Shown one piece after another: positions 6,891-64,000 of a stretch of DNA of 64,000 nucleotides. The notes beneath the pieces were generated by a model. The model was not told where the DNA came from, searched no databases, and saw only the letters and a list, made by a program, of their open reading frames with translations. The first letter of the stretch is position 1, and each line of letters opens with the position of its first letter. The position numbers and the translations under genes were made by a program. Source of the DNA: Callorhinchus milii (taxonomy: Eukaryota); NCBI RefSeq assembly GCF_018977255.1, contig NW_024704742.1:80850001-80914000 (forward strand). The letters run 5' to 3'.

Positions 6891-7060
6891 CAATCCAGCT
6901 GATTTGGGCTGGCTGGGTTTTGGACTGCTACTTGTGGTCAGCTGTTGGAATCTCCTGATAAAGAACAACTTGCAACTGGAACAATAATTCACATTTGTAT
7001 TGCGCTGTTCATTATTATTCATAACTGTACCTATCTTGGGGATATTATGGTGAAATTTAA

Positions 7061-7252
<192 letters not shown>

Positions 7253-8820: not shown

Positions 8821-9069
<249 letters not shown>

Positions 9070-13241: not shown

Positions 13242-13571
<330 letters not shown>

Positions 13572-13574
13572 TAA

Positions 13575-13830
13575 GGATGTACCAAGACAGCAGAACAAGA
13601 GGACATAAGTTTAAAATTACAAAGAGCAATTTTAGGACAGACACTGGACGTTTTTCATTACATAGAGGATAATTAACAACTGGAACAGGTTGTCAGGAAG
13701 GGTGGTTGAGGCAAAGACATTGGACTCATTTAAAAAGCAGCTTTGTGCTGTGATGGGAGGTTGGATATACTGAAAAGATGAGATTAGATGGGCCAAAAGT
13801 TCTTCTTTATCCAAATAAACTTTGTGAACT
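13575..13830 (+). mobile_element. CR1-type 3' end fragment (related copies about 35850-36180 and 50700-50950)
   Basis: RTRGHKFKITK-like ORF end and tagatgggccaaaa 3' hairpin region shared by three copies. Confidence 0.65.
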
Positions 13831-15779: not shown

Positions 15780-16485
15780 TTACAGGAGAACACAGGTTTC
15801 ACATACACAGGACTTTGAAGGCGGCAGAAGAAGTTGATATAGCTGTTAAAAACCATATGGGATCCTTGGCTTTATATATAGAGTGCAAAAGCAAGCAAGT
15901 TCTGCTAAACCTTTATAAGTCACTGGTTAGGCATCAGCTGGAATATTTGTCCAATTCTGAGTAACACACTTTAGGAAGGATATCAAGACCTTGGAGAGGG
16001 TGCAGAGGAGATTTACCAGAATGGTTCCAGGGATGAGGGACTTTAGTGAAGAGACTAGAGAAGCTGGGATTGTTCTCCTTAGAGCAGAGAAGGTTAAGGG
16101 GAGATTTGACAGAGGTATTCAAGATTATGAGGGGGTTTGATAGAGTAGATAGGGAGAAACTGTTTCCAATGGCAGGTGGGTTGGTAACCAGAGCACATAA
16201 GTTCAATATATTTGGAAAAAGAACCAAAGGACAGATGAGGAGAATTTTTTTACACAGGGATTTGTTAACGTCTGGAATGCACTGCCTGAAAGAGTGAGGG
16301 AAACAGATTCAATAACAACTTTCAAAAGGGAATTGGATAGGAAATTAAAAAGGAAAAACATACAAGGCTATTGGGAAAGAGCGGGGGAGTGGGACTGATT
16401 GGATAGCTCTTCCAAAGAACCAGCACTGGCACGGTGGACCGAATGGCCTCTTTCTGTGCTGTAATTCTTTGATTCTATGAATCTA
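15780..16485 (+). mobile_element. CR1 LINE 3' fragment
   Basis: RLEKLGLFSLEQRRLRGDLTEVFKIMRGFDRVD; tail gattctatgaatc. Confidence 0.9.
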
Positions 16486-17594
16486 GGGTAGTAAAAGTAA
16501 AGGAAATATTTGTGCACAAAAAGCCTCAGAAGTTATTCTGCTCCTTAATGAAAATGATTGCTTATCCATGGAACCCAAGAGAATCTGGAGTAACTTAAAA
16601 TACAGTGTTAAATAAAAACTAATTGTAAATAATGATGATAATGATCTGTTGTCAACCCGAGGAATTAGATTTGGAAAAACATCACATAACCTTTTCACAT
16701 TTGCTGCCATTCCCTTTCAGTTCTGATGATGATTATTTTGATAAGCATAGTAGTGCTGGAAAAAGGCTCCACTGTTTTTCAATGTCTGTAAAAACAAAAC
16801 AGCCACAATGGCTCATATCTTTCATCAATGTCTGTCAGAAATGATAAGGTTGAAAGCTCCTTTTAAGCATGCTCCAGGATGAGATGATTGTTGGAATAAA
16901 AGCCCCACCAGCAGCCTCATGTCGTCTGAGACACAGCCCCATGTGAAGGGTGCAATATAAATGCAAGTTGTTTTGTTATAATGCCAATTCCACAGCAATT
17001 CCACAGCTTTAAGACAAGAATCCCTGATGGGTTTGGCCTATTTGTGCTTGTGAGAGTCTGAGATTAGAAATAACCAGGTCGTCAGTGATGAGAGCCTCTG
17101 CTGCCACCTCTTGAAAGCACTGAACAAGGCAGACAAAATCTAAAATAAGCACTTATAAGACAAATAGGCACTTCATCCATTCAAACAATCTATATTTATT
17201 ATGAACATTTTACTTGCAACATTACAGCTAACCTTCTAATTATGGCAGAAACAGGTCTGTAGTCTTGTAGTTAACACTGAGATGGTGGTACATGGATACT
17301 GAGATTACTGACTGATACGACAGCAACAACTTGCATTTATATAGTGCCCTTCATACAGACTTGCGCTTCGAAGCGCTGTACAATTCTTGTATCTCAAGAC
17401 AAAGTGTGGGTTATGAACTGGCATACTCATTAATAGCTCCCAAAACCTATTGGTATTCACATGAGGCATTTCAATGAAGATTAGCTCAGCACTCAGCTAA
17501 GCTAATGACTTATCTTATAACACAATTACATTGTCCCCCTTCCATTCTGAGAACCAAGTTTCAATCATATTTTTAATTCTCTCTATATTCACAG

Positions 17595-17759
17595 ACTTTA
17601 CAAATGGGTATCATGCACTTCTCAGGACTCTTTGTGATGCTCTGTGTTGGAATCATTGGTTCTCTCCTCGCAACAGTTGGTGAGCACATCATCTATAGAC
17701 TGGTGCTTCCGAGAATCAAAAGAAAACCTAAACTGACGTATTGGCTCCATACAAGTCAG
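17595..17759 (+). CDS. GRIN3A: GluN3A coding exon (M4 helix and proximal C-tail with YWL motif)
   Basis: tcacag|ACT...CAG|gtatga; [55 protein letters not shown]; 165 bp; not in the ORF track, translated by hand. Confidence 0.95.
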
Positions 17760-20104
17760 GTATGAGTGCATATGAGGACATAAAATAACTTGAATACATC
17801 AACATTCAAGCACTGCAATGTAAAATAACTCTGTACATTTATTAATGGATATATTTAGATTTTAACTTTAAACAATTAAAAATGACCTTTATCATCCTTA
17901 ACAATGTTACGATCAATGTACGCTCACAGAAAAAGACTGTAAGATATAATACGAAGAGCAATCAGAATCCTATAGAAGCTAGTCAAACTAACTCAGAAAT
18001 ATTCCTATCACAACATGAAATGGGGAGGACACAGAAAATGAATCCCTTATCCATTCTTTTGTGTATCAATTCCATGAGATTAGTAAAATGTGGCAAAGAA
18101 GCTTCCAACATCACCTTTATCAGCTGCTGGATTTTCCAATTTCCTTGTTTTATTTCATTTAGTGATTGGAAATACATCACTGCATGTTTTTTTTTAATTC
18201 TCAAGTAAACATTTGACTACCTGGAACATGTTTTGAAGCAATTCAAAGTGATAAGACGCTGTAAAATTGCAAGTTTTTTTTTATAAATAAGAGTGTTTCA
18301 AGATATTTACCAGACACTTTTGTACAGACAGCTCCATTACTGTTGAACAACCCCATGTGCTGCATGCAAATATGTGCATACTCTGCATTCACAATTTAAC
18401 AATTTAACCTTTTCAGAAAAGTTGTAAGAACTGCTGTTGTAGGAAATGGAAAAGTCACACTGATACAGTAAAGGGTATTTCCTGACCTTGGGATTAACGT
18501 AGATTGTTTTGGACAGTGTAGGTAAAGTTGTGCTTACTAACAACAATAGTAATCATCCTTGTATTTGATATAGTGTCTTTCCTGTCAGGGGGTCGTCTCA
18601 AAGCACTTCACAGGACGTACTGTAAATAGTACTGATTGTGTATTTTGTAGAGGTTGGCAACAGATTGTTTATATTCTGGGTCATGTAAAAAAACTTCTCC
18701 AAGCATTTCACAAAATTAGATTAATTCAAAATTAAACAAATGTTTTGTATGCAGACAGGAGAGCTAATTTGACCCAGCTCTGTGACTAGTGATAGGGCAC
18801 ACAATGCAGGGTTGCTCAATGCTGACCTTTTGCAAAAGTGTGAATTTGCTCCATTAACCAGATTGCCTTGATAATAACCTGTCACCAGAAAACTTCACAA
18901 TGCAAAACATTGCTTGCGCGTATAAATTGGAGATTTATTGCAGACAGGCACAAGAGTGGTATACTCAGCACATCTCTGGCAATAATCCATTCTAGTTAAC
19001 GTTCCTGGTGAAGATTGTGACATCTGCATTTTAAGTACAGTGAAAAGCAATGGAAACTGCATGAAACTTGCGCACATCAGAATAAGGATTCAATATCGGA
19101 TTAATGTTATTCAAATGTTCATGCAGAGCTCCATCTGGTTTGGATATTCTTGAGCAAGTCTATACAGTACTGTGATTCTGCAGGTTTCTGCATGTGTCAG
19201 ATAAAAACACTTACACAAAGTAGCTATGGGGAGGAATATTCCACTTACTTAATTTGCATAACCAAACTGTTCTGAAAATTGCCATGTGTATTCACAACCC
19301 TTTCAAAATCAGATTTCGTTAGATCCACATTTTGAATTCATAATGTACACATGCAGTGCGATAGGAATTGTCAGCCCAGCAGATTCTTGGGCCTCTGTCA
19401 CATTGTGAGCTGAAAAGATGATTGGAGTTGACTGCAACATGGAATTTACAAGTTGTCTGCATTTCCTGATATTCCTTTTACAGTGATTGAGCACAGTCAC
19501 AGGCCACTCAACTGGTTCAGCAAAGAAGCACAGAAAGTTCTGAGTTTGAAGGTTCTGATGGGGATGTCCTCTCAGCTCTTTGCCAATTCACATTATTTCA
19601 GATCAGTTAACATGTCTCATAGACATCTTATAAATGACGTCGGGGTCAGGAGGAAAGCGGCGTGTCCTTGAGATTAAACTGGAATCAAAGAGATGTGCCC
19701 TCTATAGAAGTAAAAAAAACGAGTCTCAACCTTAATCAATGGAGTAGATGGAGTTGCACAAGTACAATGAGCTAACATTAAAAAAAATCTAATCCTTGAA
19801 TTTGATAGAGAGTGTTTCACATCAGGAAGGCGTTTCAATGCGCCTCACAGAATTTTACTGCAAAATTAAGTGTTTGTGTATTTTGTAGGTGATTACTTGA
19901 AAAAAATCTGTTAAATTGGTAAATCTGGTAAATTGATATTGTTGTGCCACAAAAATGTGTTGACAATGAAATCTCATTTAGAAAATGAATTCACGTTATG
20001 TATTTTGAGTTGAACAAGTAAGGACAGAGCTTCATAAATGTTTAATGAAATCTAAAGTTTTATTCACTAGATATGACTAAAACTGTTTGTGTATTCGTTT
20101 CCAG

Positions 20105-20178
20105 AGATTTCACCGGGCTTTAAATGCATCTATCGCTGATGAAAAATTTCAGCAGAAAGTAAATAGACTGGAAAAGAG
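20105..20178 (+). CDS. GRIN3A: GluN3A coding exon (C-tail)
   Basis: tttccag|AGA...AG|gtaagg; RFHRALNASIADEKFQQKVNRLEK(R), like mammalian RLHRAINTSFIEEK; 74 bp, phase 0 to 2. Confidence 0.93.
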
Positions 20179-21516
20179 GTAAGGAAGCTTGATTGCCATA
20201 TAAATGTTGCAAACCTTTTTAGTAGCTAAATAAATAATTCAACCTTTCTGCCCAATTTTATCTGCCAGTAACTCCACAGTAAGCTAACAAAGTATCTCAA
20301 CAATATCCCCGTCATCCTCACTGTACCATAAGAAGTGACATTGGCAGTAACCTTATGTCCCAGAAGTTGGCGACCTTGGCCTCCCATGTGTCAGCTGGTG
20401 TTTTGTCTGGATGCACCAGCCTTGTGGGGAAGCACTGACCAGCAATCGAGCCCTGTTATAAAGCTGGTTGGGATTTTCTGGATTGCCCTTTTCCCCCTAC
20501 CCCCAACTACTATGTTATAACAGGCTACCCAATGGAGTTCTGCTTTATTTGAATGCACAAAAGAAACAGAACAAGAACACATTTGAGACACTTTTAAGAC
20601 ATGTCCTGCAAATCTATAACATCATACACTGCTCGTGTGAATGTGTGGGGGTGGGGCGTTGGGAGGGGGGGTGGTGGTGTGGTGCACACATGTTGTAAGA
20701 CTATAAAAAAAAGTCTAGAACAAGGAGAGATCTTTGGTTCCATTGAACCAAATCATAATAATCCTTGCATTTGATATAACGCCTTATCATTCGAGATGTC
20801 TCAATGCGCTTTGTAGAATATACTGTAAAGTGAATTGACTGTATATTTAGTGGGCTAAGTTCATGAAACAATCCATGCATCAGACCCTCCCCCCATCCCA
20901 TACTACACACATGCACAGGTGCACAATCTATGCCTTCTACATATCTGTTGAGCGGAAGCCAAGTGTTCATCTCTCATTCCCAGGTGCCTCCGATTTGCCT
21001 CCTCATCTCTCCTCTTTCAGAATACATCTGAAAACATACATCTTTGGTCATTCTTTCAGTTATCCTTCTCTTCACTTTCCTCAGCTCTTGCCAAGCACTT
21101 TCAGACATTTCCTGTGGCTTGTCCAACTAGACCTACCAGTTAGGGCTTTGGGCTATGGAGTGTTATTTAGAGCTGAGTAGGATGACTCCCTATCCCCAGT
21201 GATTGGTCTGCCCATCCAGGTACTGTCATTAAATTGGCTGTGCTGTCATCAGCAGTACCCTGGAATACTAGGACCCACCTGGCTCAGGAACTAGACTACC
21301 AAAACCGCTACAGAGGGCTCCTGACATGAAAGATGCTATAGAAATGTAATTTATAATGTATTATACCTCTGCTTGTACAATTACTATTTCAAGTAAAGGA
21401 AGAAATACATTAATGTGAATAGCACACTCTTTTCTATAGGAGCATAACCATCCAGAAAAGAATGACAGTGTCCAGTTTAAACAAAATTATGTAACTCCAT
21501 CTTCTTTTGTTATCAG

Positions 21517-21853
21517 ATGCAATGTAGGAAATAACCAGCAGGTTGTGTGGAATACTGCCAGTCAAGTAAACTGGAGCAAACGAAAATGCATTTTCCAAGA
21601 GGAACAGCAATCTGAAATTGATTTCAAGCACTGCAAGGATGAACACCTACCCCAAATGGCGAAGGAGCTCCCTGTAGCCATCAATTCCAACGGGAAATCT
21701 GAACCACTTACTAAAGCCCGGAATTCAGTCATTCACGAGCTATCAGAACTGGAGAAACAGATTCAGTTTATTAAGCAGGAACTGCAGAAAGCTATGAGCA
21801 GGAAAAACGAGTTGGAAGAGTATCAGAGAACAGTCAAAAAAACAGAATCATAA
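21517..21853 (+). CDS. GRIN3A: GluN3A last coding exon (C-terminal coiled coil, stop TAA)
   Basis: tttgttatcag|A; (R)CNVGNNQQVVWNTASQ...RNSVIHELSELEKQIQFIKQELQKAMSRKNELEEYQRTVKKTES*; the tail resembles GluN3A rather than GluN3B. Confidence 0.95.
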
Positions 21854-23266
21854 AGGTATTACCGACACTTTGTAGGGAAAAAAGCAAAAGAAATAGTTTG
21901 GTTGGAAATACTTCATTTCATCTCTTGCCTTCACTTGCCTTCTTTTTAACATTGAAGAATTAATGTGAAGATGACCTCGCCCCCCCCACCCACCTTCCCC
22001 CATTCTCTCCGAACTATTTGGTTTCTATCGTGTTTCATCCCCGCTGAGAAAGATGAATTCTGCACAGATTTGGGCTAAGTCTGAACTAGCTTTTTTTGGT
22101 TGGTTGTTTATATTTCTTAATACAACAGATGATGTGCAGTGATCTCAGCTATAGATAAAACAAAGGCAGTACTATTTAAAGGGAACCATTGAGATTTGTT
22201 CAGTAGTATTGATGTTAAAGTTGTTCATTTAGCTGACTCAAGAATTGTTGTTGTCTTTCCTGAACTCCTTCCTACAACGTTGTACGCATCAACACACATG
22301 GACACACAGGCGGAGAATGACCCCAGAACTAAACCTAAGATCTCAATAAAAATAATAATAACCCTTGCATTTCACATATCGCCTTTCACGTCGTCTCAAA
22401 GCGATTCACAGAATTCACTGTAAAGTGTAGTCACTGTGTATTTTTTGTAGGTGAACACTGTAGCTAATTTGTGCACAGCAATGTCCCATGAATAGCCAAG
22501 AAATGAATATTCAATTTTATTTGGGGATTGTTGACCAAGACAAGGGGAGGAACTCTCTTCTCTTTTTGATCTTTAACATTCACGTGAACAAGCAGACCTC
22601 GTGTTAACATTTCATCCAGAGGATGCCACCCACAAGACTACATTGGAGTATTAGCTGAGACAACATGAGTTCAAAGTCCTGACGTGGGGCTTGACATGGA
22701 AGCAAGAGCGCTAGCAACTGAGAAAGGCTGACATTGAATTTTACAATCACCATGGACTGTTTCATGGTATGTAGCAAATGACGACAGATTTGTGCACCTC
22801 AGTCTTAACTGAGGACACTACAACAGCCTGCAAGTTGGGTTAGAGAACCTTATTTTTGGAGATACACCAGAGAGAAGGGGATGGAACTAATGAACGAGTT
22901 CAAGATTTTGTACAGAATATTCTGTTTTGAAGAGTGGAAGTGTTCCATCTAAAGTGTTCCAGAGTTGTTTTTTTATAGACCTACCCCATGGTGGGGGTAT
23001 AGATAGCTTAAATGTTAATTCCTTTTGTGATATTTAGCCCGTTAATGTTTTTGCAGTTACTTTGTAATACAACAGGATACTCTCCAGAGTCTTATTTGAA
23101 ACCATAACTTACACTGTGCCATCTGTAAATTCTTGTGAAAGTAAACTCAATTCGTAATGCACAGTTGTCCCAGAAGTGACTTGCAACAGATCGGTTGAGG
23201 TGTAGATTAGGTAATTGCCATGAATTCAAGAACTGGAAATCTTTTAATCTACAGCCCAGTACTTAT

Positions 23267-23575
23267 AATAATAATAATAATTCTTGCATTTGATTTAGCG
23301 CTTTTCACATCTTCTTGACATCTCAAAGCGCTTCACAGAATAGACTGTAAAGTGAATTGACTGTATATTTGTGGGCGGAACGCGGCAGCCAATTGCGCAC
23401 AGCAGTGTCCCACAAACAGTCGTGGATTGAAATGACCAATTTATTATTTTTTTTGAGGGATTATTATCAGGCGTGTGGAGCAAGGAAACTTGCCCAAGGT
23501 TTCAACCTGCCGGGAATCGAACCCAGGTCTCTCGCTTGCAAAGCAAGTGCTCTAATCACTGAGCTACAGGACTCC
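23267..23575 (-). mobile_element. full-length copy of the same SINE, in probable GRIN3A 3' UTR
   Basis: B box GGTTCGATTCC, same body and tail. Confidence 0.9.
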
Positions 23576-25948
23576 ATGTACAGAGTACAGAGCTGCTTTA
23601 GGTCCACCATCACCTATATGCTGGTCTCAGAGCATCTGCTGCAATTTGAGTGATGCTGCAAAGAGAAAACTTTATTTGCTGACTTTTGAACACAGGTTAT
23701 GCTTCTGATATTTTTTCACCTGATATCTTATCTCAAAAAGATAAGCTGTGACAGTGTATATGAGGTGGTGCAGAAAGAAGCACTATGCTGGTCTCACTTT
23801 TAATTCTTTGAAACATGGAATCCAGTTATTATGTTTATTTCAAGGTTATTGTGAATGAAAAGAACTTTTTATAGTTCGGTACTTTTCTGTAACTCTGTTA
23901 TAGCACTTAATGTTAAATGTTCAGCTCTCCACACAGACCGAATGGTTAAAAGATTGAATCTCGCCCTATGATGAGTTCGCTGATAGGAACATAAGAATTG
24001 CTAGACGAAAAAAGACCTAGGTCCATTGAGTTTGCCTTCTACCGTCCTGGTATTTGCATGTTGCAATAATTGAGATGTTGATAGCAATTAATTCTGCATG
24101 GAATTAATCAGCCATTAATTCTGATCACAGCCAAGGCAGCGGTTAGGGCAATACCATTGGCCTCAGCACCATAGCTTTAAAGAGGAGAAAATCAGCCAGG
24201 TTTCCCTCCTTTTGATGGTTGTCCAGAGTTCCCTGCAGCAAGGTGGGGTCACGTAGATGTTGGGTTTGGACAGGTTCATGCTCAAGCTGGCTTGCCTTAC
24301 CGGAAACATGTAGTATCAAAGCTCCCACATAAAGAATGGCCCTTGAGGCAAACAGCACTGGATGTTTACCAGTGCTTTAGGAACTGTGTCAAAAAAGAGT
24401 CAAAACCTTCTGGGGGATGGGAGAGGGAGATTTAAAAAATTCAAACATTTTAGGAAAAGAACTCCATTTGAAAGCAACAATCAAAACCCATTGCTCTAAG
24501 TGCTTATGCAATGGGAAATAATGGTCTGGATATCTCAGTGAGTTAGAACAGTGTCTTTCATTTCTGGGATTTCAGTCCAGCCCAGAATGACAGAACTCCC
24601 TCTCTCTCTTTCTCACTCTGTTCTGATTTTCTCTGGATCTTAAAATTACATGAATTTTAAGCCATCAGCTCAGCCTCCAGTGAGCATGTATCTCCACTAC
24701 TAAACTTCCTGTCAACTGACATGAACGGGCTGATACAGACTCAAACTGAATATGCTGAGCAGGGCAGATAAGAACATCTGAATCCTGAATTGGTTGGGTT
24801 TTCTTTCACATTTAGCTGACAACAGCAAGATAAGTGTATTCATCGGCTGAGACAAATGTGACTCTTCCACCAAGTCTGTAAATTCATGATGAATGAAGGG
24901 TTGTCCCAAAATCAGTAAGACCAGCTGGTGCAAGAATTTGAATTCTCATAAACAAATGCCTTTATCCATGATGACAATATAAAAGCAAATTTATATAGCG
25001 TCTTTCAGGTTGGGAGAATATCATAAGGCGCTCATGTCTTGGCACCCGAGCTGGAGGGGAAGGCCAGAGTGAAGACACAAGATGATCAAAAGCACGCTCA
25101 AAGAGATAGGTCTTGAGATAGACCTTGAATGAGGTAAGGGAGGAAGGAAATCGGAGGGAGACTCCAGAATGGAGTTCCTAAGAATAGGGGTGGATGGGCT
25201 GAAAGCCTGCCCGCTACTGGTGGGGTGGGTAGGGTGGGGGGCATGAAGCAGGTTGGTGCCAGCTGAGCGGATTGGAAACAAGTGGAGCTCAAGAATCTGT
25301 AGCTTTCTCCATTGTGCTGAAGACCGACCCCAATCTCGGCATAATGGTTGTGGCCCGAGATTTCAGATTTCCGTTTCTTGTTTTCAAACACAAGGAATGG
25401 TGTTTACGTGCAGTGAAAAATTGGGCACCTGCTTAACTCAACCAGTATTCATTGCCTGCTATCGTGAATCGAGAATTCAAGATGACAGATGAACTATTTT
25501 GAAAAGTGGCTTTGTTAAAAACCATTGTGTTGAACTTGGGAAGTGTTTAATCACAAATTGTTAAAGGCAGGTGGCAATTGTCAACCAGTCAATAAGTAAC
25601 ACCAGCGATAGTTTATCGTCGATGATCATTGTGACACTGTTATGTTTTTCTCCATGTGATCTTTTAGTAGTGTTAAAGAATATACCAGGAACCCTTGTTA
25701 GACTGGTAAATGCACGAGCCACAGCAGAACATCTATTTGTATCTTTGAACAGGAGGACATTAAAAATTCAATGGAAAGTCATATTTGAATTGTGCATACT
25801 TTTTTTAATAAGACAGATATGTCTGCCCAAAGCATACGATTTGACTTAACGGCCTGAACTATGTAATAATGTGCAAACAGTATCCCTCGCTTCTCAGGAT
25901 AGAAACACTTCCAACAATCTTTGGTAAAAAAAATGTCTTTATGTCTCT

Positions 25949-25954
25949 ATTAAA
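25949..25954 (+). terminator. candidate GRIN3A polyadenylation signal (ATTAAA)
   Basis: ATTAAA followed by GT-rich ttgttgttgtgtg about 4.1 kb after the stop; motif evidence only. Confidence 0.3.
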
Positions 25955-26107
25955 TGTAAATGCATTGTTGTTGTGTGATAACATGGTGTCTCCTGCATTT
26001 CATTTTCACTTAGTGATATGAGGACTTTTTCTTCCTTTGTTCTTTGATGATAACCAATCCATTTTTAAAACTTACTTTTGTAGGATTTTACATTGTCATT
26101 TTAATGA

Positions 26108-26605
26108 TGATAAATAAAATAATCCTTGCATTTGATATAGCACATATCACGTCTTCGAGAAGTCTCAAAGCAATTCACAGAATATACTGTAAAGTGAATT
26201 GACTGCATATTTTGTGGGTGAAACGCAGCAGCCAAATATGTACAGCAGTGTAGCATAAAGAATAATAATAACAATAACAACCAAAAACAATGATAAATTG
26301 GTCATTTTCAATCTACGACTGTTTGTGGGACATTGCTGTGCCAATTGGCTGCCGCGTTCGCCCACAAATATACAGTCAATTCACTTTACAGTGTGTTCTG
26401 TGAAGCGCTTTGGGACGTCCTCCCGTCATGAAAAGCGCTATATCAAATGCAAGGATTATTATTATTATTATTAAACAGTCGTGGATTGGGTAACCAATGT
26501 ATTTTTTTGAAGGAATTCTTTACCCTGGAAAAGCAATCCGCCAATCGACTAACAACTGGATTCCCATTTACTGCTAGGAATCGAACCCAGGTATCTCACT
26601 TGCAT
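26108..26605. mobile_element. young SINE (+, 26262-26472) nested in older SINE (-)
   Basis: Minus copy stops near 26255 and resumes at aacagtcgtggattgg (26474). Confidence 0.85.
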
Positions 26606-27877
26606 TCATTTTGTACATAAAGTTTGGCACTACTCTCTTCCCCATTATAGCAATGCTTGTACACCCTATGTGAGTGTAGTGGCACTACTCTACGCATGGT
26701 CATTTGGACCCTCTTGCACAAGAGGGCCTTTGTGAGGGAGAATGTTGATCATTCACAATTTGTTTCCCCTTAAATAGTGATGTTGACCTAAATAAGTCAC
26801 ATTACAGTGTCTGCAGGTTCCGTTTCCTGTAATATTCAGAGGTAATCAATACCTGCTGTACAATTATTGATTGTGATATGCCTTCTGCTTGTGATATATA
26901 TACTGCTGACCATTTTGTTTATTTTCTCTCATGAAATATTATTCATGTGGGCAGTGGGAAAATTTCCGTCAGCTTCCATAAGTGGACAATTAGGCAGAGG
27001 ATCAATTGCTTGTGGGACACTTTGATATTGATCAAACTGTCAACTGGAGCCATTCACAAAATACTGATCTGGATTTACCTGCTGCAATAAATCCGGAATG
27101 AAAGATGATGTGAGTTCTGGTGACAACACATCATCCTGATATATGATAATAATCCTTGCTCTGTTATAATAATAAATAATAATCCTTGCATTTGATATAG
27201 AGCCTTACCATATTTTGTGGGCGAAACGTGGCAGCCAATTGGGCACACTAGTCTCCCATAAACATTCATGTATTGAGTGACCAAATTATTATAGCACCTT
27301 AATATGTCGTAAAGATGTCTCCAAGTGCTTTATAGGATTTTACTGTAATGTGCTGTGACTGTGTTTTTGAAGGCAAATGTGGCAACCAAATTGCACACAT
27401 CAATGTCCCATAAAAACCATGAAGTGAGTGACCAATTTTATTTGGGGGAATTGCTGGCCCTTACACCGGGACAAACTCCCCTATCTTTTCGAATAGTGGC
27501 ATGTGATCTTTAATTTGAACAGGTAGATGGGATCTCTGTTAAACCTATCATCCAAGGGACACACTTCCAATATTGCAGCACACCCCCAGCACTAGATTGG
27601 AGCATCAGCCAAGACAGTAAGTTCAAAGACCTGGTATGGGGCTCAAACCCATAACTGTCTGAGCCAGGCTGACATGGATGTTGTGTCACGTGTATATTGT
27701 GCCAACAAGAAGCATGTTGCTCAATGCATACTTTCAGCCACCTATTTGCAGCCACCTATTCGCTTCCATGTTATAGGGTTGTTAAATTTCCTGTCTTCTG
27801 AGTCCCTTTTGTCTGAACAATTTTATCTTGACAAAGATGAGGTTTGAGTTATGAATTTGGATGCAGCATTTGATGTA

Positions 27878-28191
27878 ATAATAATAATAATCCTTCCATT
27901 TGATATAGCGCTTTTCACGTTTTCTAGACGTCTCAAAGCGCTTCACAGAATAGATTGTAAAGTGAATTGACTGTATATATGTGGGCAAAACACGACAGCC
28001 AATTGCGCACAGAAGTGTCCCACAAACAGTCATGGATTGAAAATGATCAATTTATTATTGTGTTTTTTTGGAGGGATTATTATTAGGCATGTGGAGTAAA
28101 GAAACTTGCCCAAGGTTTCGCCCTCTGCCTGGAATTGAACCCAGGTCTCTCACTTGCAAAGCGAGTGCTCTAACCACTGAGCTACAGGACT
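27878..28191 (-). mobile_element. full-length copy of the same SINE
   Basis: A box TAGCTCAGTGG, B box GGTTCAATTCC, same body and (att)n tail. Confidence 0.9.
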
Positions 28192-34032: not shown

Positions 34033-34952
34033 ATTAAGTGATATAGTGCCTTATCGTGTCTTTGATCTGTCTCAAAAGTGCTTCACAGAGTACACTGTAA
34101 AGTGAATTGACTGTTTTCTGGAGCAAGGAAAAAAATATTACAGGCCAGTGGGGTTTGTTAGCAATATTCACAAGATCACGAGATTGGTCTGGATGTAGAA
34201 TACTTTGCATATTCAATCTCATCCCTCCACAACACTGATCATACCATCATTGCCTCCAGCTATTTTTTAATTAAGTCTAGTGTCCTGGCTCCAATTTTCT
34301 GTCCTTGCAATTTGTTCCAATTATTGATTCCCCTCTACGTGAAGAAAACACTTTCCCTTCAGATCTTACTGATTCAATGTCCATATCTTACCCTTGATAT
34401 CCAGCAACCACTGTTTATTGAGGAGATTTTGATGTGGTACTTAGTTAAACACCTTTTGGAAGTATGCTACGTTATCTGCTTCCCAAAGTTAATTTGGGCT
34501 ATCACCTCCTCAAAAAAGTCTATGTGATTGCTCTGGTCTGATAAAGACCTACTCTTTCTGAACCTGTGTTGACTGTAAATGATTAGCTTATTTTTTATAG
34601 CTAATCTTCCACTTCCTTTCTGGTGATTGACTCCATAATTGTTCCTATTATCCAGACTGATACATGGTGTTCCTGTTTTGAAGTCACGTTAATGTTTCTG
34701 TAGTTGCCAGGTTTATTTTGTCACCCTTCTTAAAAACTAAAATCTAGAAAGACTTAACCTTCTTATGTTATCATTTTGAATTATGGTTGAAATTACGGTT
34801 TTCAACTAACGATATATCTGGCCTTGTACACAATTCTCCCACAAATTTGTGCTAACTTCCCAATTTACAAATGTTCCCAATTTTTCTGCAGTTTGTCTGA
34901 ATGAGACCTTTCCCCATTCTGTTAAGTACGAACACATTTAAAGTGTATTAAC

Positions 34953-35118
34953 AAAAACAGAAATCACTGGGAACATTCAGCAAGTTAGGCTGTGGAAAAA
35001 GGAAAGTGAGTCAACATTTCAGGTCCATGACCCTATGCTGCCTGACCTGCTGAGTGTTCCCAGCAACTTCTGTTTCTGTTTTCAGATTTCCAGCATCTGC
35101 AGTGTTTTGCATTTTGTT
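34953..35118. repeat. fold-back Penelope-type terminal repeat
   Basis: aaacagaaatcactgggaacattcagcaagttaggc pairs with gcctgacctgctgagtgttcccagcaacttctgttt. Confidence 0.65.
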
Positions 35119-36461
35119 TAGTTTATTATCGTTACGTGCTACTTTACAGGCTATTTTTTAATCAAATTTGCACTGCAACATGGCTACAGACAAATGCTTA
35201 ACCCCTCTCCCCCAACTCTTCAGTGTTATTTACTACATTACTCAGCTACATGTGTTCTGTGTTATTCCTCCGTGCTCAAATAGTAGCTCCTTCTCTCACC
35301 AACCACAAGAAGTAGAATCGCTTACACTGGAAGTGGAATATTAAAGGATAGGGGAAAGAGCAGAGGAATGGTATTATAGTAGGTAATTGCAGTGAGGGAG
35401 GTAATACCATCTTAGCTGTAATAAGATGCATTTTATTCTTTGTGCAATTTTGTCTGTAACTGAAGCCACATTGTATGTAAAGAATTAATTCTGGGCATTT
35501 AGCACTGGTAAGTGGACACAATTTCAGGCTGGAATTCACTATCATTTCAAGCATTCCCAAGTCTGGTTTAGCACAAGTAGATGCAGATCAAAGCTGCACT
35601 GATTAACACTCTACAACAGTGCAAAACAGTCAACTGCAATCAGTGCCTCTTGCTCTGCTACATTTCTCACTCTTGCCACTCATCCTTCCAGCCTCTTTGA
35701 ATGAAGTGATCATTTTGTGCTGAATTGTACTTGCCTTCATAGGAATCTGGCAATTAAAATACAAGAGATTTTAAATTCAATCAATTCAGGCTGGAACACA
35801 AATCAGCTATGAGCACTAATTAGACAAGCTTGGACTCAAGTCTTGAAAAAATGCACCCAAGAAAGGACCGTGTAGAAGTATATAAGTTTTAAATGCAATT
35901 GAGAAAGTAAACCCAGACCGACACTTAGGATGCACTAACGCAGCAGACACCAGGAAACAAGTTTAGGGTTGCAAAAGACAATTTCAGAACAGATACCAGG
36001 AAGTATTTATTTCTCCGTAGGATTGTTAAAGACAAGAAGAGGTTATGAGGAAGGGTGATTGAGGCTTTAAAAACAGTTTGATGCTACAGTGGAAGGCCAC
36101 TAGAGTATGTTTTCTGGAAGCATTAATCAAATTTACCAAAGGGCTTCCTTCATTCAAATTTTTCTTGTAATCTTGTAATAAGAATACAGGTCCCAAAGGT
36201 GAAAGCAGAAAGGTTCAGCTCGGGTGCTGTCCAGCTCCATGAAACATGCTTCCAACATGAAAGGAACTATATAAATGTAATTTTGTTGTTGTTGTTCAGC
36301 CCACTCTGACAAGTTTCTTGATCATATTTTATTTACTGAGTATCCTTCAGCAAGGTAGTTGACCAAAACACATTTTAGGTAGTTGTCTCATTAATATTTA
36401 TTTAAAAAAAGATGCATGGAATTTCAACACCTATTGTGTGTATGTAAACCAGACAACGCAC

Positions 36462-41300: not shown

Positions 41301-43511
41301 CAGCAAATACAGCTGTCACCGCTGTATAACTTATGCTTGGTGGGAATTGACTGCAACGTGAATGGCATTTCAAGTAAATGTATAACTTTAGGTTTGGTCT
41401 GCCTCATGTGGACGTAAAGGGATTTCTCAACCATTGCTGCTGGAAAGAAATGTAGAATCGTACTCCCAGTTATCCCGTATGAAAATTCTCCTCATCGTAC
41501 AAATTTAACCCAAATCCAAATGAATTGGCTTCTGCCCTCAATGTTGTTTACTGGACGACACTGATATAGATTTGCAGAGAGCCCAGCAAAGTGAAGAAGG
41601 AACTAAATGAGGTGGAACAGAATGAGAATTCTGTTAGAGAATTAGGTGAGAGTGGGAATTTGGTGCAGAGGGGGAAGGAGGTGCAGGTGAGAACTTGTTT
41701 CGATCTCTTTGTAAAGGAGAAACAGAACCAATGAGAGAGCTCAGTGCGGGAGTCTTTTCTGGGCCTGCGGGAGATCGGAGAGTGAAGTCAGGAGTAGAAA
41801 ACAGGACCTTGAAGATGGTAATCTTCGGATTGCTACCCAAGCCACGTGCAAATTGGCAGAGATAAAGTTTGATGTGAGAAGGAGGTGATCCATTTCATGG
41901 GACACTGGCACTAGTACTGGGACAGGAATGAGCTGTACTGCTGGGATGGGCTGCACATGAACAGGGCTGGGACTAAGGAACTAGAAGAACCTCAGGTAGT
42001 AAAGGCAACACATTTCTAGACTGTATTCAGGACAGCTTTTTGGAACAATATGTTTTAGAACCAACAAGGGAATAAGCCATACTGCATTTGATGAGTAATG
42101 AGCCAGAACGAGTTAACAATCCAACAGTAAGAGAACATCTTGCAAATAGTGATCATATATTAGATTTGAGAGGGAGAAGGGAGAGTCCCAAACTAAGGTT
42201 TTAAATTTAAGTCAGGCAAATTTCAATGGGATGAGAAATATATTGACCAAGGTAAACTGGGCTGAATTGTTAGTGAGTAAACCTGCAGATGAACAATGCA
42301 AAGTATTCAAAAAAGTATTTGATACAATACAGAACAAGTACATAGTCCTAAAATGCAAAAGCTCCAATAGTGTAGTTAAGCAACCATAGTGGACAAAAGA
42401 GGTTAGAGACTGTATCAAGCTAAAAGAAAAGGCTTACTCAAATGCAAGAAAAAGTGGGAATGCAGAGAACTGGGAGAACTGCAAAAGGCATCAAAGGAAT
42501 ACAAAGAAAGTAATAAGAGGAGCAAAAAGGGAGTCTGAAAAAAAACTTGCAAGGGATATTAAATCCAATAGCAAAAGCTTTTATAAATATACCAAAAGAA
42601 AGAGAATGAATGGTCAAGGGGAACGTGGGTTAAAGACAGATGTAGGTGAGACTATAACGGAAAATAAGGAAATGGCCGACTTGTTAATTAATATTCGCTA
42701 TTATTTTTACAGTAGAGGATGAGGACAAGTCAAAGAGAAATGCTTAATAAAATTTATATAAATAAAAAAAGGAAATGGAGAAAATAATCAGACTCAAGAT
42801 AGACAAATCTCCAAGACCTGATTGTTTCCACCTGTTAAAGGAATTATGAGACGAATTAGGAGAGGAAATTGCGGATGCATTCGTAATAATTTTCCAAATC
42901 TCACTAGATTCGGGAATTATGCCCTTAGCTTGGAAAATTGCGAATGTCACCCCTTTATTTAAGAAGAGAGGGAGACAGCAACCAGGAAACTACAGACCTG
43001 TCAGCTTAACGTTGGTTGTAGGGAAAATACTGGAATCCATCGTCAGGGACGATGAACAGGGAGTGACTGAACACTTGGACAGGTATGAGCTAGTCAAAGA
43101 GAATCAGCATGGGTTTGCGAAGGATAGGTCATGTCTGACTAATCTTGTTGAATTTTTTGAGGAGGTCACTAAAATGGTGGATAAAAGGGTATCTATGGAT
43201 ATTGGTTATAAGGATTTTCAGAAGGCATTTAATAACATTCCAAACAAAAGATTATAAACGAAAATGGAAGTGCATCAAGTCGATGGTAACCTTATGGTGT
43301 TGCTTGGTAATTAGTTGGGAGACAGGAATCAGAGAGTAGGGATAAAGGGACCATTCTCTGATTAGTAGATGTGACAAGTGGTGACCCCAGGGGTCTGTAC
43401 TGGGACCTCAGCTATTCGCCATATATAAATGACTTGGATGAAGGAATAGAAAGTTTTATATCCAAGTTTGCAGACAACACTAAGCTAGGAGGCTCAGTAA
43501 GTTGTGTAGAT

Positions 43512-52197: not shown

Positions 52198-54619
52198 TTG
52201 AATTACACATGTGGAGTGTAGATTATTGATTAAATTGGATTTTATACGATTTATACAGTTTGCCTGCAACTCAGACTTCACTTAAGTCATATTAAAATTA
52301 TTAAATGTTATGTTCCCGACTGATACAACTTATGGTGAGTTTTACTGTCTTGGGGAGTTCTGGATTGTCGGAGCTTCAGTGTTTCGGATGAAATTCTTGA
52401 GAAATCTACTTTAAGTGCAAGTGCAAGATGCAACCAAGTTGAGTTGGCAGGACGAGATTAATAAAGAAGTAGTGTTGGGTGTTTTGCCAGGGCAGAGCCT
52501 CTCCGTGTCGTAGATTGGAATGGGAAGTCATCCAGGCAGGTTCTGACTGCTGCTGACTGCTACAACAAGCCTGAGTGCTACTTAGCCGGTTTCACCCATC
52601 TGCCCAAAGTGGATGTCGGGATGACACAAGATTTCATTTTAAACACAGGAACAGATTTCTCAATTCAGCTGCAACAATCATCCCACTGAGAGCAGTCCGA
52701 CAGTCACCAGTACAGCTACCAACACGGACCGTGTGACAGGCAAGCCCAATTACACACTGTTGATTCTAATGTAACTCCAAGCCTATCAGTAACCTGATAA
52801 ACAAACACTGACCTCAAGGTTGCTAATATGAAGTCATGTGCAGCCAACGCTACCTAATAGTCTGCTAAATCCCATCAGATATCAGCCACAACCTGTCCAC
52901 AGCAAATTGAACAGCCTGTGGCATCAAGCACTCATGCAACATTCATCAAAAGGCATAAAACAGAGGTAACAATCTAGTGCTGCAAACATCCGAAGCAAAA
53001 ATCTGGTTCTTCTGGTTGGTTTACACTGAGGAAATGGTTCCTGTAGTAATTTGGAAAAATTGTAATATCTTTTGAAAGACTTATTTTTCCCAATTAAAAT
53101 AACAGAAGAACAATAATGTGAACATCAGTGAAGTCTCAACACTGATATTCTCGGAAGTGAGGTGCCCTGAATACTCGTGTGAGGATTCAGGCAAAGAGTT
53201 CCCCCTGACATGAAAGGCATTGTATCAAAGGCAAGTTTTTTTTTCTGTCACGTTCAAATACCCCAGTGGCTGTTCCTGGCCATTCACCTACACACAGCAC
53301 AATGATTCAGTTAGCAGTGCAGGGGCTGCTCTCCTGCTCTGGAAACCACAACCCAGTGCCTTCATTGCAAGCTTTGCAACAGCTAAGCCTTCTCTAACCT
53401 CCAGTAGCTTCATAATATTGATGCAGCTAAGAGCAGGAGAGACCCAGGGGTAAGAGTGTCACTTTTTATTTGGGCTTAGCTGCAGCAACTTGGCTCTGGC
53501 TGAATGGTTAGATGCTTATGCCACAAATCCTTTTAGAACAGTTGAATTAACAATGTAAGATCCCACTTTAATGAAAATAATTCAGCACTGCTCTCATGGG
53601 AAATGTAGCCAAAGTTTCATAGAACACACTGACGTAAACCACATCAAGTACTGAAAGGCCTTTAGCTGACAACATTAAGATGTCACTTAAGCAAACAAAC
53701 GCAGAGTTCTGAGAATGGGGAATTGGAAGATAAATTAGTAATCTACAGGGTACGGCATTATGAAAAGGATCTGGTTAAAAAGAGTAAAAACATGATCACT
53801 GATGTATAGCTTAAACCTACAACCATTCTGCCTTCCGCTCTGTAACTCCATGTCAGATTCCCTCTGAATCGCTCTCTCTCCTCTTTCAAGGTATATCTGA
53901 AAAGATATCTCTTATTATTCCCCTCCCACCACTCTCAGTTCCTACCCTGAACTCGGGTGCCCCATTCAGCACTGTGAAGCTCTTTGAGATGACCCCGATC
54001 GCCCCCCCACCACCCAACGTAAAAGACACCATATCAATTATGCTGTATGGTATTGTGAAGGGATAGAGCAGAAGTCACAATAAGCGATAGTCAGCTTCCA
54101 ACTAATGCTTTCCCCCACCTGTGTTAGTTCTTTCTGAAAGCACCGTCAACGAGATACACTTTAAAATGTACCTGAAAAGAGGCAAGAAGGTAAGGAGCAA
54201 ATCAGAGGAACCTGAGAATGGTGTTTATAACTCCAGTTCTCCCAGTCGCTCATCAAGATAAGCCCTTCTCCCAAGGTATTAATCTCGTGAACCATCACTG
54301 GACACTCTCCAAGGCTAGTATAATAAAAACTATCATTAAGACACTCTACTCATGTGAACCACGATTGATTCTTTCATTACATGATCATTCTTCCCGAGAG
54401 ACAGATAAAGTTTCTGAAGGAACATTACATTCACTATCTTTATGTAAGATCTCTCGTTGATTTATATAGTAGGGTCAGAAGTGTGGTGTGCTGTTCTCAT
54501 CCTGCCACTGAAAGAATTCTCCGTACCCTCACCATCCAATTAACACTTCCCCTCCAAATACATGTACTTGTGAACTGTTTACCACCCAAAAATCAAGGCA
54601 AGTTTTTAAAATAACTCAC

Positions 54620-54752
54620 CAATAAATCTAATTATTCTTCGGAAAAGTGGGCTCAGGTAACAGCACTCTCCTGTTACGATTGTCTTCTCTTGAAGGAGGA
54701 GGTTTTCCCTGGTTGTTTTTATAAAATACATCGATATCTCACCAATAAAAAT
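54620..54752 (-). CDS. PLPPR1: PLPPR1 coding exon
   Basis: ttttgcag|ATT...ATTG|gtgagt; IFIGEISMYFIKTTRENLLLQEKTIVTGECCYLSPLFRRIIRFI(G); 133 bp. Confidence 0.96.
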
Positions 54753-54782
54753 CTGCAAAAAATTAAAAAATACATATGATGC

Positions 54783-59975: not shown

Positions 59976-61890
59976 CAACAACAACAAAATTACATTAATA
60001 ATCCTAATAATAATAATCCTTGCATTTGATATAGCGCTTTTCACGTCGGGAGGACGTCCCAAAGCGCTTCACAGAACACACTGTAAAGTGAATTGACTGT
60101 ATATTTGTGGGCGAACGCGGCAGCCGATTGTGCACAGCAATGTACCACAAACAGTCGTAGATTGAAAATGACCAATTTATTATTGTTTTGGGTTTTGGAG
60201 GGATTATTATTAGGCGTGTGGAGTAAGGAAACTTGCCCAAGTTTTCACCCTGCCTGGAATTGAATACAGATCTCTTGCTTGCAAAGCGAGTACTCTAACC
60301 ACTGAGCTACAGGACTGCATTTGTATAGTACCTTTCACTTCGGGGGACATCCCAAGGTGCTGGACAATCAGTGTTTCGGACCTGAGCTGGGGATCGGGGA
60401 GGGTGGATGGCAGTGGGGGAAGGAAGGTGATCGAAGGCACGGTCGCAGAGGAGTGTCTTGAGATGGGTCTTGAAGGAGGCAAGGGAGGTAGAGGGACTGT
60501 GGAATGGAGTTCAAGAAGGTGGGGGCAGAGTGACAAAAGACTCACTGTCGATGATGGGGAGGTCGAGGCGGGACGCGTGAAGCAGGCTGAGCGGAGGGAG
60601 CGGGCAGGATGGTAGGGGGTTACGAGGTTGCAAAGGTAGGGTGGAACAAGGCCATGGAGGATTTTGAAGGTGGTCAACGGTATTAAAGGCAGCAGAGAGG
60701 TCAAGGAGGACGAGTGAGCCCTGGTCGCAGATGGACAAAATGTCTTTAGTCACTTTGAGCAAAGCTGTTTCTGTGCTGCGGGTGGTACGGAAACCCAAAT
60801 AGAGGGGTTTGTGAAGGGAGTGGCAGGAGAGGAAGGATCGAAGCTGGGAAGCAATGAGTTGTTCCAAGACCTTGGAAAGGAAAGGCAGGTTGGAGATGGG
60901 GCAGTAGTTTGATAGTAGGGAAGGATCCAGGGCGGGTTTTTTAAGGATAGTTGTGATGATCACCGTTTTTAAAAGGGAATGGTGCCAATGGGCAGGGAGA
61001 GGTTTATGGTGTCTGTGAGTAAGGGGGGTAAGTAGGTAGAGCTGGAAGGTTAGGAGAAAGGTAGGGTTAGGGTTGAGGGAGTGGGTGGTTGGTTTCATGA
61101 GGGTTGTAGAAGTGGTGAGAGAGGAGTAGGAGAGGTTCAAAGGTGTGGAGGGTGGGATGCGTAGGGGGTGGGGTGTGAAGGGGAGATGTGGAGGGGGTAG
61201 TATTCAGAATGGCAGAGGTAACTGAGCAGATCGCCTCAACTTTGGTTTCGGAAGTCCAGCATCTCTTCGCAGTTGGCATTGGAGGAGAGGTTGGGCGAGA
61301 TAAGAGAGGGTAGGCAGAGGAAGCGGCTGGTGATGGAGAAGAGGAGCCTTAGGTTGTCCTTGGCCTCCAAGATTGTCTTGGAGTAGAAGGACGAATTTAG
61401 CGGAAGTGAGGGCAGAGCAGTAATTCTGATAAGGTCCATCCAGATTTGCCAATGGGACTGTTAAGTTAGATTTGAGCCTGGTGCGTACAGTGGCATGCAC
61501 CTGTGCCTTGAGGGAGCGGAGGTGGTGTATCAGGGTGACTTCCGTGAGTAGCAGACTGTTCGGGATATGAGGGGAGCAAGGGCATTGAGAATGGTGGAGA
61601 GGGAGTTGTGGAGGAGAGTGACCGAGGATAGGTAATTGCAAGAGGAAGCCCAGAGGGGGAGGAGTTCAGATGACTCCAAGGTAGGGAAAAGGGAGGGGGG
61701 GGAGATTTTTTTCCAGGAGCGGTAGGAGATGGAGGTGGGTTGGGTGTTGGTCGGGAGAGGGATTGAGGAGTTAAGGGAGATGAAGTAATGGTCCGAGATT
61801 GGTTTGTCGTTGATGGTGAGATCCGAGATGCTGAGGCCCCATGTGGATGTGGAGGGAGAGGTTGTAAGAGGAGAGGAGAGAGGAGAAATG
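59976..61890 (-). mobile_element. L2 LINE with internal deletions, tail interrupted by a SINE
   Basis: LKKPALDPSLLSNYCPISNLPFLSKVLE, STETALLKVTKDIL, LLDLSAAFNTVD. Confidence 0.85.
60004..60316 (-). mobile_element. young full-length tRNA-headed SINE with L2-like tail
   Basis: Head agtcctgTAGCTCAGTGGttagag...ttcaattcc (pol III A/B boxes, TGC anticodon-like loop); tail gggacgtcctcccgacgtgaaaagcgctatatcaaatgcaagg(att)n. Confidence 0.9.
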
Positions 61891-62859
61891 TTAAAGTGTA
61901 TAGGTAGACATGGCTTGTCCAGTTTACCCTGTTACCAAAATAATATGCATCACAACAATATACTATAAGTGGAAGAGAATCACATTGGAGCAAAACCTTT
62001 CGCTCGTCAGTAGTTACCAACCTTGGCAGTTTCGCTACTATAACTGGAGCGATGTCCCCATTTATAAGAGTACCCTGGTATGGATGGTAACTTTATCATC
62101 CTGTAACTTTTTAACTTGGAACACGCACCATGCACTAAACTGGTAAATTACTCAATCCCTTATCTGTATTTGCAAAGTTAACAGGCAAACCAATTCAGGA
62201 ACCAACCAATTCATAGTTCGGGGGAAAAATCCTCAATCTGATATTTGAGGTGTCACTCTGTTTCTAATACTCTGACACTTACTGATACCATTGATTCCAT
62301 AAACAAATGAAACATTGACAAAGAAGCTATGATAAGCCTCATAATAGTGTTAAAATGGTATTAATTTTGCATGGCATCCTTCTGTAATAAAAAAGGTACG
62401 GAGCCCTAATTAAATTTTTAAACAGTTTAATATTTAATTATATGTTAATATGTTTTTGGATGGTATCCAACATAATGTATTATGCAAAACTATGTAAAGT
62501 TATACATGAAGTGGTCCAAAGTCTATTTGATAAAATGTTAATGAAGTAGCAAATTCCTTCCCACAGGGAAGACAAAGACCTGCTTCTTAATCGTGAAAGA
62601 GTCTCGGTTTGCAGTAAAGCTAATGTAGGTCAATCATAATGTTCAGCTAGGAGTATTGAAAGCAAATAAAGGCAACAGGAATGCCCATTCTCCAATATGG
62701 TTGCGTTCAAAGCACGACAAAGTCATGCTTTCGGGATACTTAACGATAACCAAGATATTGGGTTAGTCCTTTCCAATCTGCGTTAGCAAATCCCATTCCT
62801 TGCCCGGTTGCGTTCCCTTCTCTTTTGAAGGTAGTTCTGAGGATGCTATTAGCCTTACC

Positions 62860-63330
62860 CAAACTTAAATTTTAATAAAGCTTTAATCTCTAGGACCTGA
62901 ATTTGAATCCAGTCCAGATTTTTGGATGAAACTCTCCTCTGTCTGTTTACTGTAAAAGTCTTCATGCCAAGTGAGTCTGACCCACATCCTTGTGGGTGTG
63001 AGCTCACAGCATAAATTTGCTCTTAATTTGACACCAACTTGGCATTCTTATTCAGAGTCGAAGAATGTAGAAAGTATTAAAAGTTAAAGAGGTGCAGTGG
63101 GGAAACTCTACTGAGAATTGGGCTTAAAGGCATTATTGGAATCAAGTGGGGGAGCATTACTCTTCATCTAACTGGGCTATACCTGAAACAAAAACAGAAG
63201 TCTCTGGGAAAAAAAAAGCAGGTCGGCCGCATCTATGGAGAAAGGAAAGTAAGTCAACATTTCGGGTCCATGACCCTTCATCAGAACTGGGCTATATCTG
63301 TCCTGGGAGTTTTTATTGCTGACACTAGGC
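62860..63330 (+). mobile_element. ancient LF-SINE-like element (second partial copy about 24530-24725)
   Basis: ctctaggacctgaatttgaatccagtccag, aatttgacaccaacttggcattc and agtgggggagcattactc...gctatacctg are collinear with the LF-SINE consensus as recalled. Confidence 0.5.
63186..63288 (-). mobile_element. Penelope-type terminal fragment carrying a minimal hammerhead motif
   Basis: Related to 34953-35030; minus strand CTGATGA-A-GGGTC-ATG-GACCC-GAAA; flanked by a 16-bp near-perfect direct repeat. Confidence 0.6.
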
Positions 63331-63469
63331 ATCCAAACTGATGAAATGTTCCATTTTCCAGCAATAACAAAATTTCCCTGAAAAAGGAAAGAGAAACAAT
63401 TTTTTTGTTTTTGACAGCTCTTTCATACAGACTCGGGAGAACAATGTGAAAGCTGGGGATCATTCAGCT

Positions 63470-64000
63470 CACTGAGTCCACATCAGCTCACAGAATAAAG
63501 ATTTCAATTAAATGTCACTGCCCTGCCTTCTACCCATACCCCTTCAATCCCCTCGCTTTCATATGCCTGTCTACTTCCCTCTTGAAAACTACAATATACT
63601 CCGCCCTCACCAACAACAACAACAACAAAATTACCTTTGCATAGCGTCTTTCATTTCGGGAGGACATCCCAAGGCAGGGAGTTCCACACCGCAACAACTC
63701 TCTGTGTAAAAAAAAATCCTCCTAAGTTCTCCTTTCGCTATTCTTGTTGCTATCTTATAACTATGTCCCCTAGTTACTGATTCCCTATCAATTGAAATAA
63801 CTTATCCCTTTTTACCCTAACAAAACCTCTCAGAATTGTCTACACCTCTATCAGATCCCTCCTCAGCTACAATGTAAACAGACCCAGCTTTTCTAATCTC
63901 TTCTCATAACTGTAGCCCTTCATGCCCAGAATTATTGTCTATGAACCTCCTCTGCACCTCCCCTAAGGACTATTTCTTGGTGAGGTGCCCATAACTGGAT
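63470..64000 (-). mobile_element. CR1 3' fragment with short L2-tail insertion (about 63610-63675)
   Basis: Reverse complement reads gggatctgatagaggtgtagacaattctgagaggttttgttagggtaaaaagggataagttattt, typical of the CR1 ORF2 end. Confidence 0.75.

Follow-up and report, generated by a model that had tools for sequence, protein, structure and literature searches.

A minimal hammerhead motif of very probable Penelope-like origin, most likely inert, in sense orientation within a PLPPR1 intron of Callorhinchus milii

Hammerhead ribozymes of Penelope-like elements (PLEs) are said, after Lunse et al., to cleave as dimers. The minimal hammerhead ribozyme (min-HHR) of these elements, according to the available text of Cervera and de la Pena (2014; PMC4209133), combines a CUGANGAH box, a stem II closed by G10.1-C11.1, a GAAANNUH segment without helix III and a short stem I; it occurs mostly as solo copies, thousands per genome (about 4,000 in coelacanth and 9,000 in Xenopus), and in the same account single min-HHRs show no cleavage and dimers show low cleavage. 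Poseidon PAc of Anolis carolinensis is an active tandem element whose open reading frame begins at stem II; the accessible sections of Frangieh et al. (2024; PMC11167929) place its hammerhead about 110-140 nt upstream of insertion 3′ ends and describe two 3′ end classes set apart by a tail, attributed there to two start sites of reverse transcription and said to occur in PLEs alone. In that work the PAc hammerhead was cut only with the element's protein, cleavage was unnecessary for insertion and inserted copies retain the hammerhead uncleaved. Insertions of endonuclease-bearing PLEs are described with inverted 5′-truncated partners, a one-ended tail of 30-40 bp and target-site duplications of variable length (Craig et al. 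2021; 10.1101/2021.04.23.441226). Two further systems hold related ribozymes. Non-LTR retrozymes, as set out in the accessible part of a preprint (bioRxiv 10.64898/2026.07.22.740005), are short non-coding repeats in which two or more units stand in tandem and every unit holds a complete type I hammerhead related to PLE terminal repeats, and their chondrichthyan consensus averages 363 bp; the hammerheads of amniote introns, RECK among them, are type I ribozymes on the intron sense strand, conserved and canonical, with helix III and tertiary contacts (PMC6155905). Hammerhead repeats and PLEs have been reported in one chondrichthyan species (bioRxiv 10.64898/2026.07.22.740005), and the species in Fig. 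S3 of Cervera and de la Pena (PMC4209133) include no cartilaginous fish. We found no published description of the cartilaginous-fish family described below, in a search that took in neither most subscription journals nor the repeat databases, and no match in one supplement of PMC8557442.

We analysed a stretch of 64,000 nucleotides of the C. milii genome, here called the window, for which a preliminary description had proposed a PLE-type minimal type I hammerhead within PLPPR1. The minus-strand letters from 63288 to 63252 read as claimed there, with both core boxes, stem II and a stem I holding one wobble (Table 1), and they fit the published min-HHR descriptor: the CUGANGA box is followed by one extra nucleotide, stem II lies within the allowed 3-7 bp with a loop of 3-10 nt and is closed by G10.1-C11.1, and a GAAANNUH segment (GAAA-U-G-U-U) without helix III precedes the 3′ strand of a stem I that falls within 3-7 bp. 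All core nucleotides of this copy are intact. The sole wobble of stem I is a U.G pair adjoining the predicted cleavage site, which lies between 63256 and 63255 on the minus strand. Our own descriptor matched this motif once and nothing else in 64 kb on both strands; among 1,000 null windows matched in local composition (first-order Markov by 2-kb block), 3 held any match and 0 an equally good one. A published RNAmotif descriptor, re-coded by us from the text of Cervera and de la Pena 2014, likewise gave 63252-63288 as its single match in the window and matched 4 of 500 null windows. The preliminary description had named two motif searches as checks, and they diverged: the RNAmotif descriptor matched, whereas the Rfam hammerhead covariance models returned 0 matches in 64 kb at the gathering score and 0 matches at E<=10 on 62800-63700 (901 nt). 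The folding energy of the 37-mer is unremarkable (z -1.29). A weak Rfam IS009 match at 63310-63425 was dismissed, at 26.5 bits against a cut-off of 117.

The palindromic pairing expected at 15.2/16.2 is reduced in this copy to a U.G wobble, whereas the Fig. S3 rows without a helix III insert carry Watson-Crick pairs there, as far as the figure is readable (PMC4209133). We read this loss as probable decay of a family member, not as non-membership; by all testable sequence features except the wobble, the motif appears to belong to the PLE minimal hammerheads, a known kind.

Table 1. Coordinates of the hammerhead motif, its insert, the fold-back copy and PLPPR1 exons in the window
Feature	Position	Strand	Remarks
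Minimal type I hammerhead, without helix III	63252-63288	minus	sequence and descriptor scans
Stem I, 4 bp	5′ strand 63288-63285; 3′ strand 63255-63252	minus	
First core box CUGAUGA	63284-63278	minus	extra A at 63277
Stem II, 5 bp, 3-nt loop	63276-63272 paired with 63268-63264	minus	
GAAA box	63263-63260	minus	
U15.2, G16.2, U16.1, U17	63259, 63258, 63257, 63256	minus	
Position 15.2	63259	minus	U in this copy; ACGU palindrome to AUGU
Insert body, 99 bp	63186-63284	minus	hammerhead and about 70 nt of high-copy repeat; depth, loose ends, alignment
5′ copy of 16-bp direct repeat	63285-63300	minus	probable target-site duplication; 15/16 identical
3′ copy of 16-bp direct repeat	63170-63185	minus	
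Flank resembling element start	63149-63169	minus	15/21; directly past 3′ repeat
Fold-back copy, left arm (head-to-head)	34950-35034	minus	5′-truncated, begins at A9, without CUGAUGA box
Fold-back copy, right arm	35035-35116	plus	5′-truncated downstream of hammerhead
PLPPR1 coding exon nearest downstream of motif	54618-54767	minus	residues 86-130 of shark homolog
Further PLPPR1 exons	51324-51070, 47301-47125, 46141-45956, 40897-40802, 36755-36723	minus	homolog mapping

Contigs from 4 of 24 public sequencing runs (X1, X3, X9 and X11), aligned to 62800-63600 at 80% likeness, describe the family behind this copy. Summed depth over the motif was 60,000-214,000 in X1 and 84,000-303,000 in X3, and unique flanks stood at 8.65 and 11.1, giving a rough motif-to-flank ratio of about 7,000-27,000; summed contig depth is no copy number and yields an order of magnitude, on which the family holds roughly 10^4 copies. 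The RNA status of X9 and X11 is a guess, and the flanks have no cover in these two runs, so they provide no measure of expression. Position 15.2 is C in 66% of depth in X1, 67% in X3, 81% in X9 and 71% in X11, no change at 16.2 appears among the rows listed, and the family as a whole thus carries the palindromic pair. This majority supports the decay proposed in the preliminary description: the ATGT of this copy most likely derives from ACGT. T at 15.2 possibly makes up about a third of depth and is common to the second copy in the window, which may reflect reference bias or an ATGT subfamily; its share (up to about 1/3) exceeds the 12-15% change at the other CpG, C11.1-G12. G12 is the general base of the hammerhead according to the available text of PMC6155905, and C11.1 serves as a tolerated comparison site, since its change still leaves a G.U pair. 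G12 is changed in 14.0, 14.7, 13.9 and 13.1% of depth in X1, X3, X9 and X11, and C11.1 in 12.0, 12.0, 18.0 and 11.7%; catalytic G12 is therefore not spared relative to C11.1, which argues that most copies decay neutrally.

The 5′ ends of family members cluster just upstream of the core. Depth is about 25-fold lower in the next bin, and the best-supported 5′ loose ends among those listed lie behind 63286, 63287 and 63291, with none at the cleavage site. Ends behind 63287 occur in 4 of 4 runs (70, 72, 13 and 19 contigs) with unrelated flanks, and ends behind 63286 in 35 contigs of X1 and 40 of X3, the agreement among flanks for 63286/63287 being 0.36-0.45. Behind 63291 (67, 56, 19 and 16 contigs) agreement is 0.61-0.69; longer family contigs align as far as this point and run past it into common upstream sequence, so longer family forms exist. 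That upstream sequence is pyrimidine-rich, with CAG at 63289-63287 where many copies begin, and resembles a splice acceptor at helix I, such as has been reported for Drosophila virilis Penelope in the available text of PMC4209133. The upstream segment of longer members has 0 matches in the window at <=3 mismatches. One X9 contig (depth 28.4) switches strand exactly at the predicted cleavage site, 63255/63289, a single observation.

The preliminary description had missed that the motif heads a 99-bp solo insert, that a 16-bp target-site-like duplication surrounds it, that the family numbers about 10^4 copies and that there is no intact dimer partner. The direct repeat, with 1 mismatch, has a chance of about 2e-5 by arithmetic; at 16 bp it agrees with the variable-length target-site duplications of PLEs and is not PLE-specific. 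Because the 5′ repeat contains the 5′ strand of stem I, this strand could be host or element sequence. The 99-bp body stops short of the family's tail segment, differs at many points from the family sequence in its 3′ half and carries, at 63251 and 63228, letters not shared by 98-99% of the family. Likeness to the element start appears again downstream at a 115-nt period, in the segment directly past the 3′ repeat, with a score equalled in 2 of 2000 random segments. This segment may be an older decayed relic of the family, or a target picked for its homology to the element; with both the first core box and GAAA broken, it is of no use as a dimer partner. No empty-site joint was found in X1 or X3 contigs, and, because contigs drop rare variants, this is no proof of fixation. 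Two other multi-copy segments lie near the insert, at 63484-63600 (X1 depth to about 4,800 against 8 on unique flanks) and at 62881-62961 (about 50 against 8).

Searches for element coding sequence and for relatives elsewhere were negative within their scope. Among 19 ORFs near both copies, 0 gave a reverse transcriptase (RT) or GIY-YIG Pfam match; an ORF from the ATG within the first core box was set aside as short and without a Pfam match. Two scans each of viral and metagenome contigs with the family pattern gave 0 matches, and a genome-contig scan gave 4 single matches in bacterial MAGs, which we took as chance. The window does hold broken reverse-transcriptase frames with Pfam RVT_1 (5538-6677, 10335-11465, 42850-43254 and 60514-61203); these presumably come from CR1/L2-group LINEs, not from Penelope. 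Three tRNA-like Rfam matches, the only ones at the gathering score (23502-23573, 28125-28187 and 60245-60316, minus strand), head a many-copy repeat of the window that is probably a tRNA-derived SINE.

A second copy of the family lies in the window as a fold-back (34950-35116), and 34945-35125 folds as a long hairpin at -64 kcal/mol. Its left arm likewise carries U at 15.2. A tail of about 30 nt (35086-35116) is present on the right arm alone, absent from the left arm and from the 63186-63284 copy, and is consistent with an X9 loose end before 63183. This copy thus combines a 5′-truncated inverted partner with a tail at one end, as PLE insertions do, and by analogy with them the one-sided tail is what we would call a Penelope-like signature. 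No convincing target-site duplication was found around it. Its location, about 1.6 kb downstream of the last coding exon of PLPPR1, would allow it to be part of the 3′ UTR. It was rejected as a dimer partner for the hammerhead, since it is 28 kb off, past the final coding exon, and has no first core box.

Set beside the described systems, the family resembles PAc in a hammerhead about 110-140 nt upstream of insertion 3′ ends, in two 3′ end classes set apart by a tail and in inserted copies that retain an uncleaved hammerhead. Unlike PAc, as described in the accessible sections of PMC11167929, an active tandem element with a frame starting at stem II, the locus here has no long frame and no Pfam match nearby. 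The head-to-head pair with a tail on one arm and the 16-bp duplication at the 63186-63284 insert are as in the endonuclease-bearing PLE insertions of Craig et al. 2021 (10.1101/2021.04.23.441226, in its accessible part), from which both window copies differ in being tiny and without an ORF remnant. With non-LTR retrozymes the family shares a short non-coding repeat and a type I hammerhead related to PLE terminal repeats; by the tandem criterion of the preprint, in the part available, a retrozyme is out, the locus having one complete motif and a neighbour at 115 nt with broken core boxes, and the 363-bp chondrichthyan average differs as well. The resemblance to amniote intronic hammerheads ends at class and orientation, for the motif here is minimal and part of a decaying high-copy repeat.

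The host gene was identified through exon 51324-51070, for which the best 8 of 120 matches are shark/ray PLPPR1 at 83-87% identity, and five PLPPR1 homologs aligned to the window gave the minus-strand exon map of Table 1. No exon of the window matches residues 1-85 of full-length homologs, and the exon closest to the motif begins at about 54767, so that the motif would be intronic; the sense-strand placement put forward earlier agrees with this map, and we infer an intron that spans about 54768 to beyond the window end, with the motif on its sense strand. The exons at 40897-40802 and 36755-36723 (minus strand) are alternative last coding exons that match different shark/ray isoforms. On the plus strand, exon-like frames at 8821-9069, 13242-13571 and 21440-21850, for which Pfam gave no match, are what we take to be the C-terminal part of NMDA receptor subunit 3 (GRIN3), convergent with PLPPR1. 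As a solo insert, one of about 10^4 copies and without an intact dimer partner, the motif has an incidental location in PLPPR1.

We consider it very probable that the motif is of PLE origin, that it arrived by target-primed insertion from uncleaved RNA and that it is inactive in PLPPR1 pre-mRNA. An autonomous PLE would have supplied the RT and the GIY-YIG endonuclease, which would have made a staggered cut at the target and reverse-transcribed, by target priming, an uncleaved template taken from the 3′ end region of the family sequence; synthesis would have halted just 5′ of the hammerhead core, at a site with 7 nt common to the element. That none of the listed major 5′ ends falls at the cleavage site is consistent with uncleaved RNA as the insertion substrate. 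Cleavage in the parent element would require a dimer, held together by a self-complementary 4-bp ACGU helix III, and probably also the element's protein. The inserted copy would then have decayed through the CpG change at 15.2 and would now be an inert passenger of PLPPR1 pre-mRNA. The impairment suggested in the preliminary description is supported by predicted folding: the 4-bp duplex has an energy of +2.6 kcal/mol for AUGU against -1.7 kcal/mol for ACGU, that is, 4.3 kcal/mol weaker. Predicted pairing of stem I has a probability of 0.09 in 61 nt and <=0.01 in contexts of 97-437 nt, and that of stem II ranges from 0.4 to 1.0, depending on context. No intact hammerhead partner exists in the 64-kb window by either descriptor; given also its weakened dimer helix and rarely formed stem I, this copy is most likely inert. 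Among Xenopus dimer elements, only 1 of 9 cleaved, according to the available part of the preprint (bioRxiv 10.64898/2026.07.22.740005).

The alternatives differ in how much of this reading they would replace. A hammerhead look arising by chance in a repeat of other origin, such as a piece of a LINE or SINE with no ribozyme history, would agree with the missing Rfam match, the ordinary folding energy and the lack of an RT or GIY-YIG match among the ORFs near the copies; we hold it to be very improbable, because descriptor matches are so rare in null windows (3/1000 and 4/500), because the extra A past CUGANGA, the G10.1-C11.1 pair and the family's C-G at 15.2/16.2 fit outside the descriptor, and because the fold-back of the second copy, tailed on one side, is of PLE type. 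At the other extreme stands a working, possibly co-opted ribozyme that cuts PLPPR1 pre-mRNA, with 63149-63185 as its tandem partner or family RNA acting in trans. The sense orientation and intact core suit it, two G.U wobbles would still let AUGU self-pair, likeness to the element start recurs in the downstream flank at a 115-nt period, family sequence is abundant in the runs guessed to be RNA, and intronic hammerheads have been domesticated in amniotes, RECK being an example in the available text of PMC6155905. This reading is nonetheless extremely improbable: the motif has no helix III, the 64 kb hold no intact partner, neither the first core box nor GAAA survives in the neighbour, the dimer helix is weakened and stem I seldom forms, the 3′ half of the insert is much changed, the share of depth with G12 changed is equal in RNA-guessed and DNA-like runs at 13-15%, and a family of about 10^4 copies would be expected to place intact cores in sense introns anyway.

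Closer to the preferred PLE reading is a discrete non-autonomous mini-retroelement of about 100-135 nt, a SINE-like derivative of a PLE terminal repeat with a unit that starts at the hammerhead and transcripts that would borrow PLE protein, in place of random 5′-truncation debris of full elements. It overlaps with the preferred reading and fits the clustering of 5′ ends: loose ends that lead into unrelated flanks gather just 5′ of the core (63287 in all runs, 63286 in X1 and X3), depth falls there, and the 63186-63284 copy begins at that point too, with a target-site-like duplication. PLE-derived non-autonomous hammerhead repeats have moreover been proposed in the accessible part of bioRxiv 10.64898/2026.07.22.740005. 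Against it, a comparable contig group runs upstream past 63291, the truncation points in both arms of the second copy lie elsewhere, a mixture of upstream subfamilies could pass for unrelated flanks, and solo truncated min-HHR copies are the published norm in the available text of PMC4209133, so that we regard it as possible but doubtful. A fuller version is unlikely: a hammerhead-headed mini-retroelement in tens of thousands of copies, its 5′ end set by a splice-acceptor-like processing site, inserting by microhomology and sometimes perhaps into older relics of itself. Some fold-back copies may start exactly at the ribozyme cleavage site, as one X9 contig possibly does.

On the PLE reading we prefer, the finding extends a ribozyme class known since 2014 by one cartilaginous-fish example and does little else, and the 63252-63288 copy is uninformative on PLPPR1 regulation. 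The family offers more as a natural experiment. Decay of the C11.1-G12 CpG over thousands of copies tests for selection on catalysis, and the placement of 5′ ends with respect to the cleavage site tests whether insertion is ever templated by cleaved RNA, a point left open by the in vitro work on the lizard element in the sections of PMC11167929 available. Fold-back starts at the cleavage site, if true, would be a genomic footprint of cleavage in vivo, and the mini-retroelement reading, if true, would give a genome-scale record from which to ask when PLE hammerheads cut.
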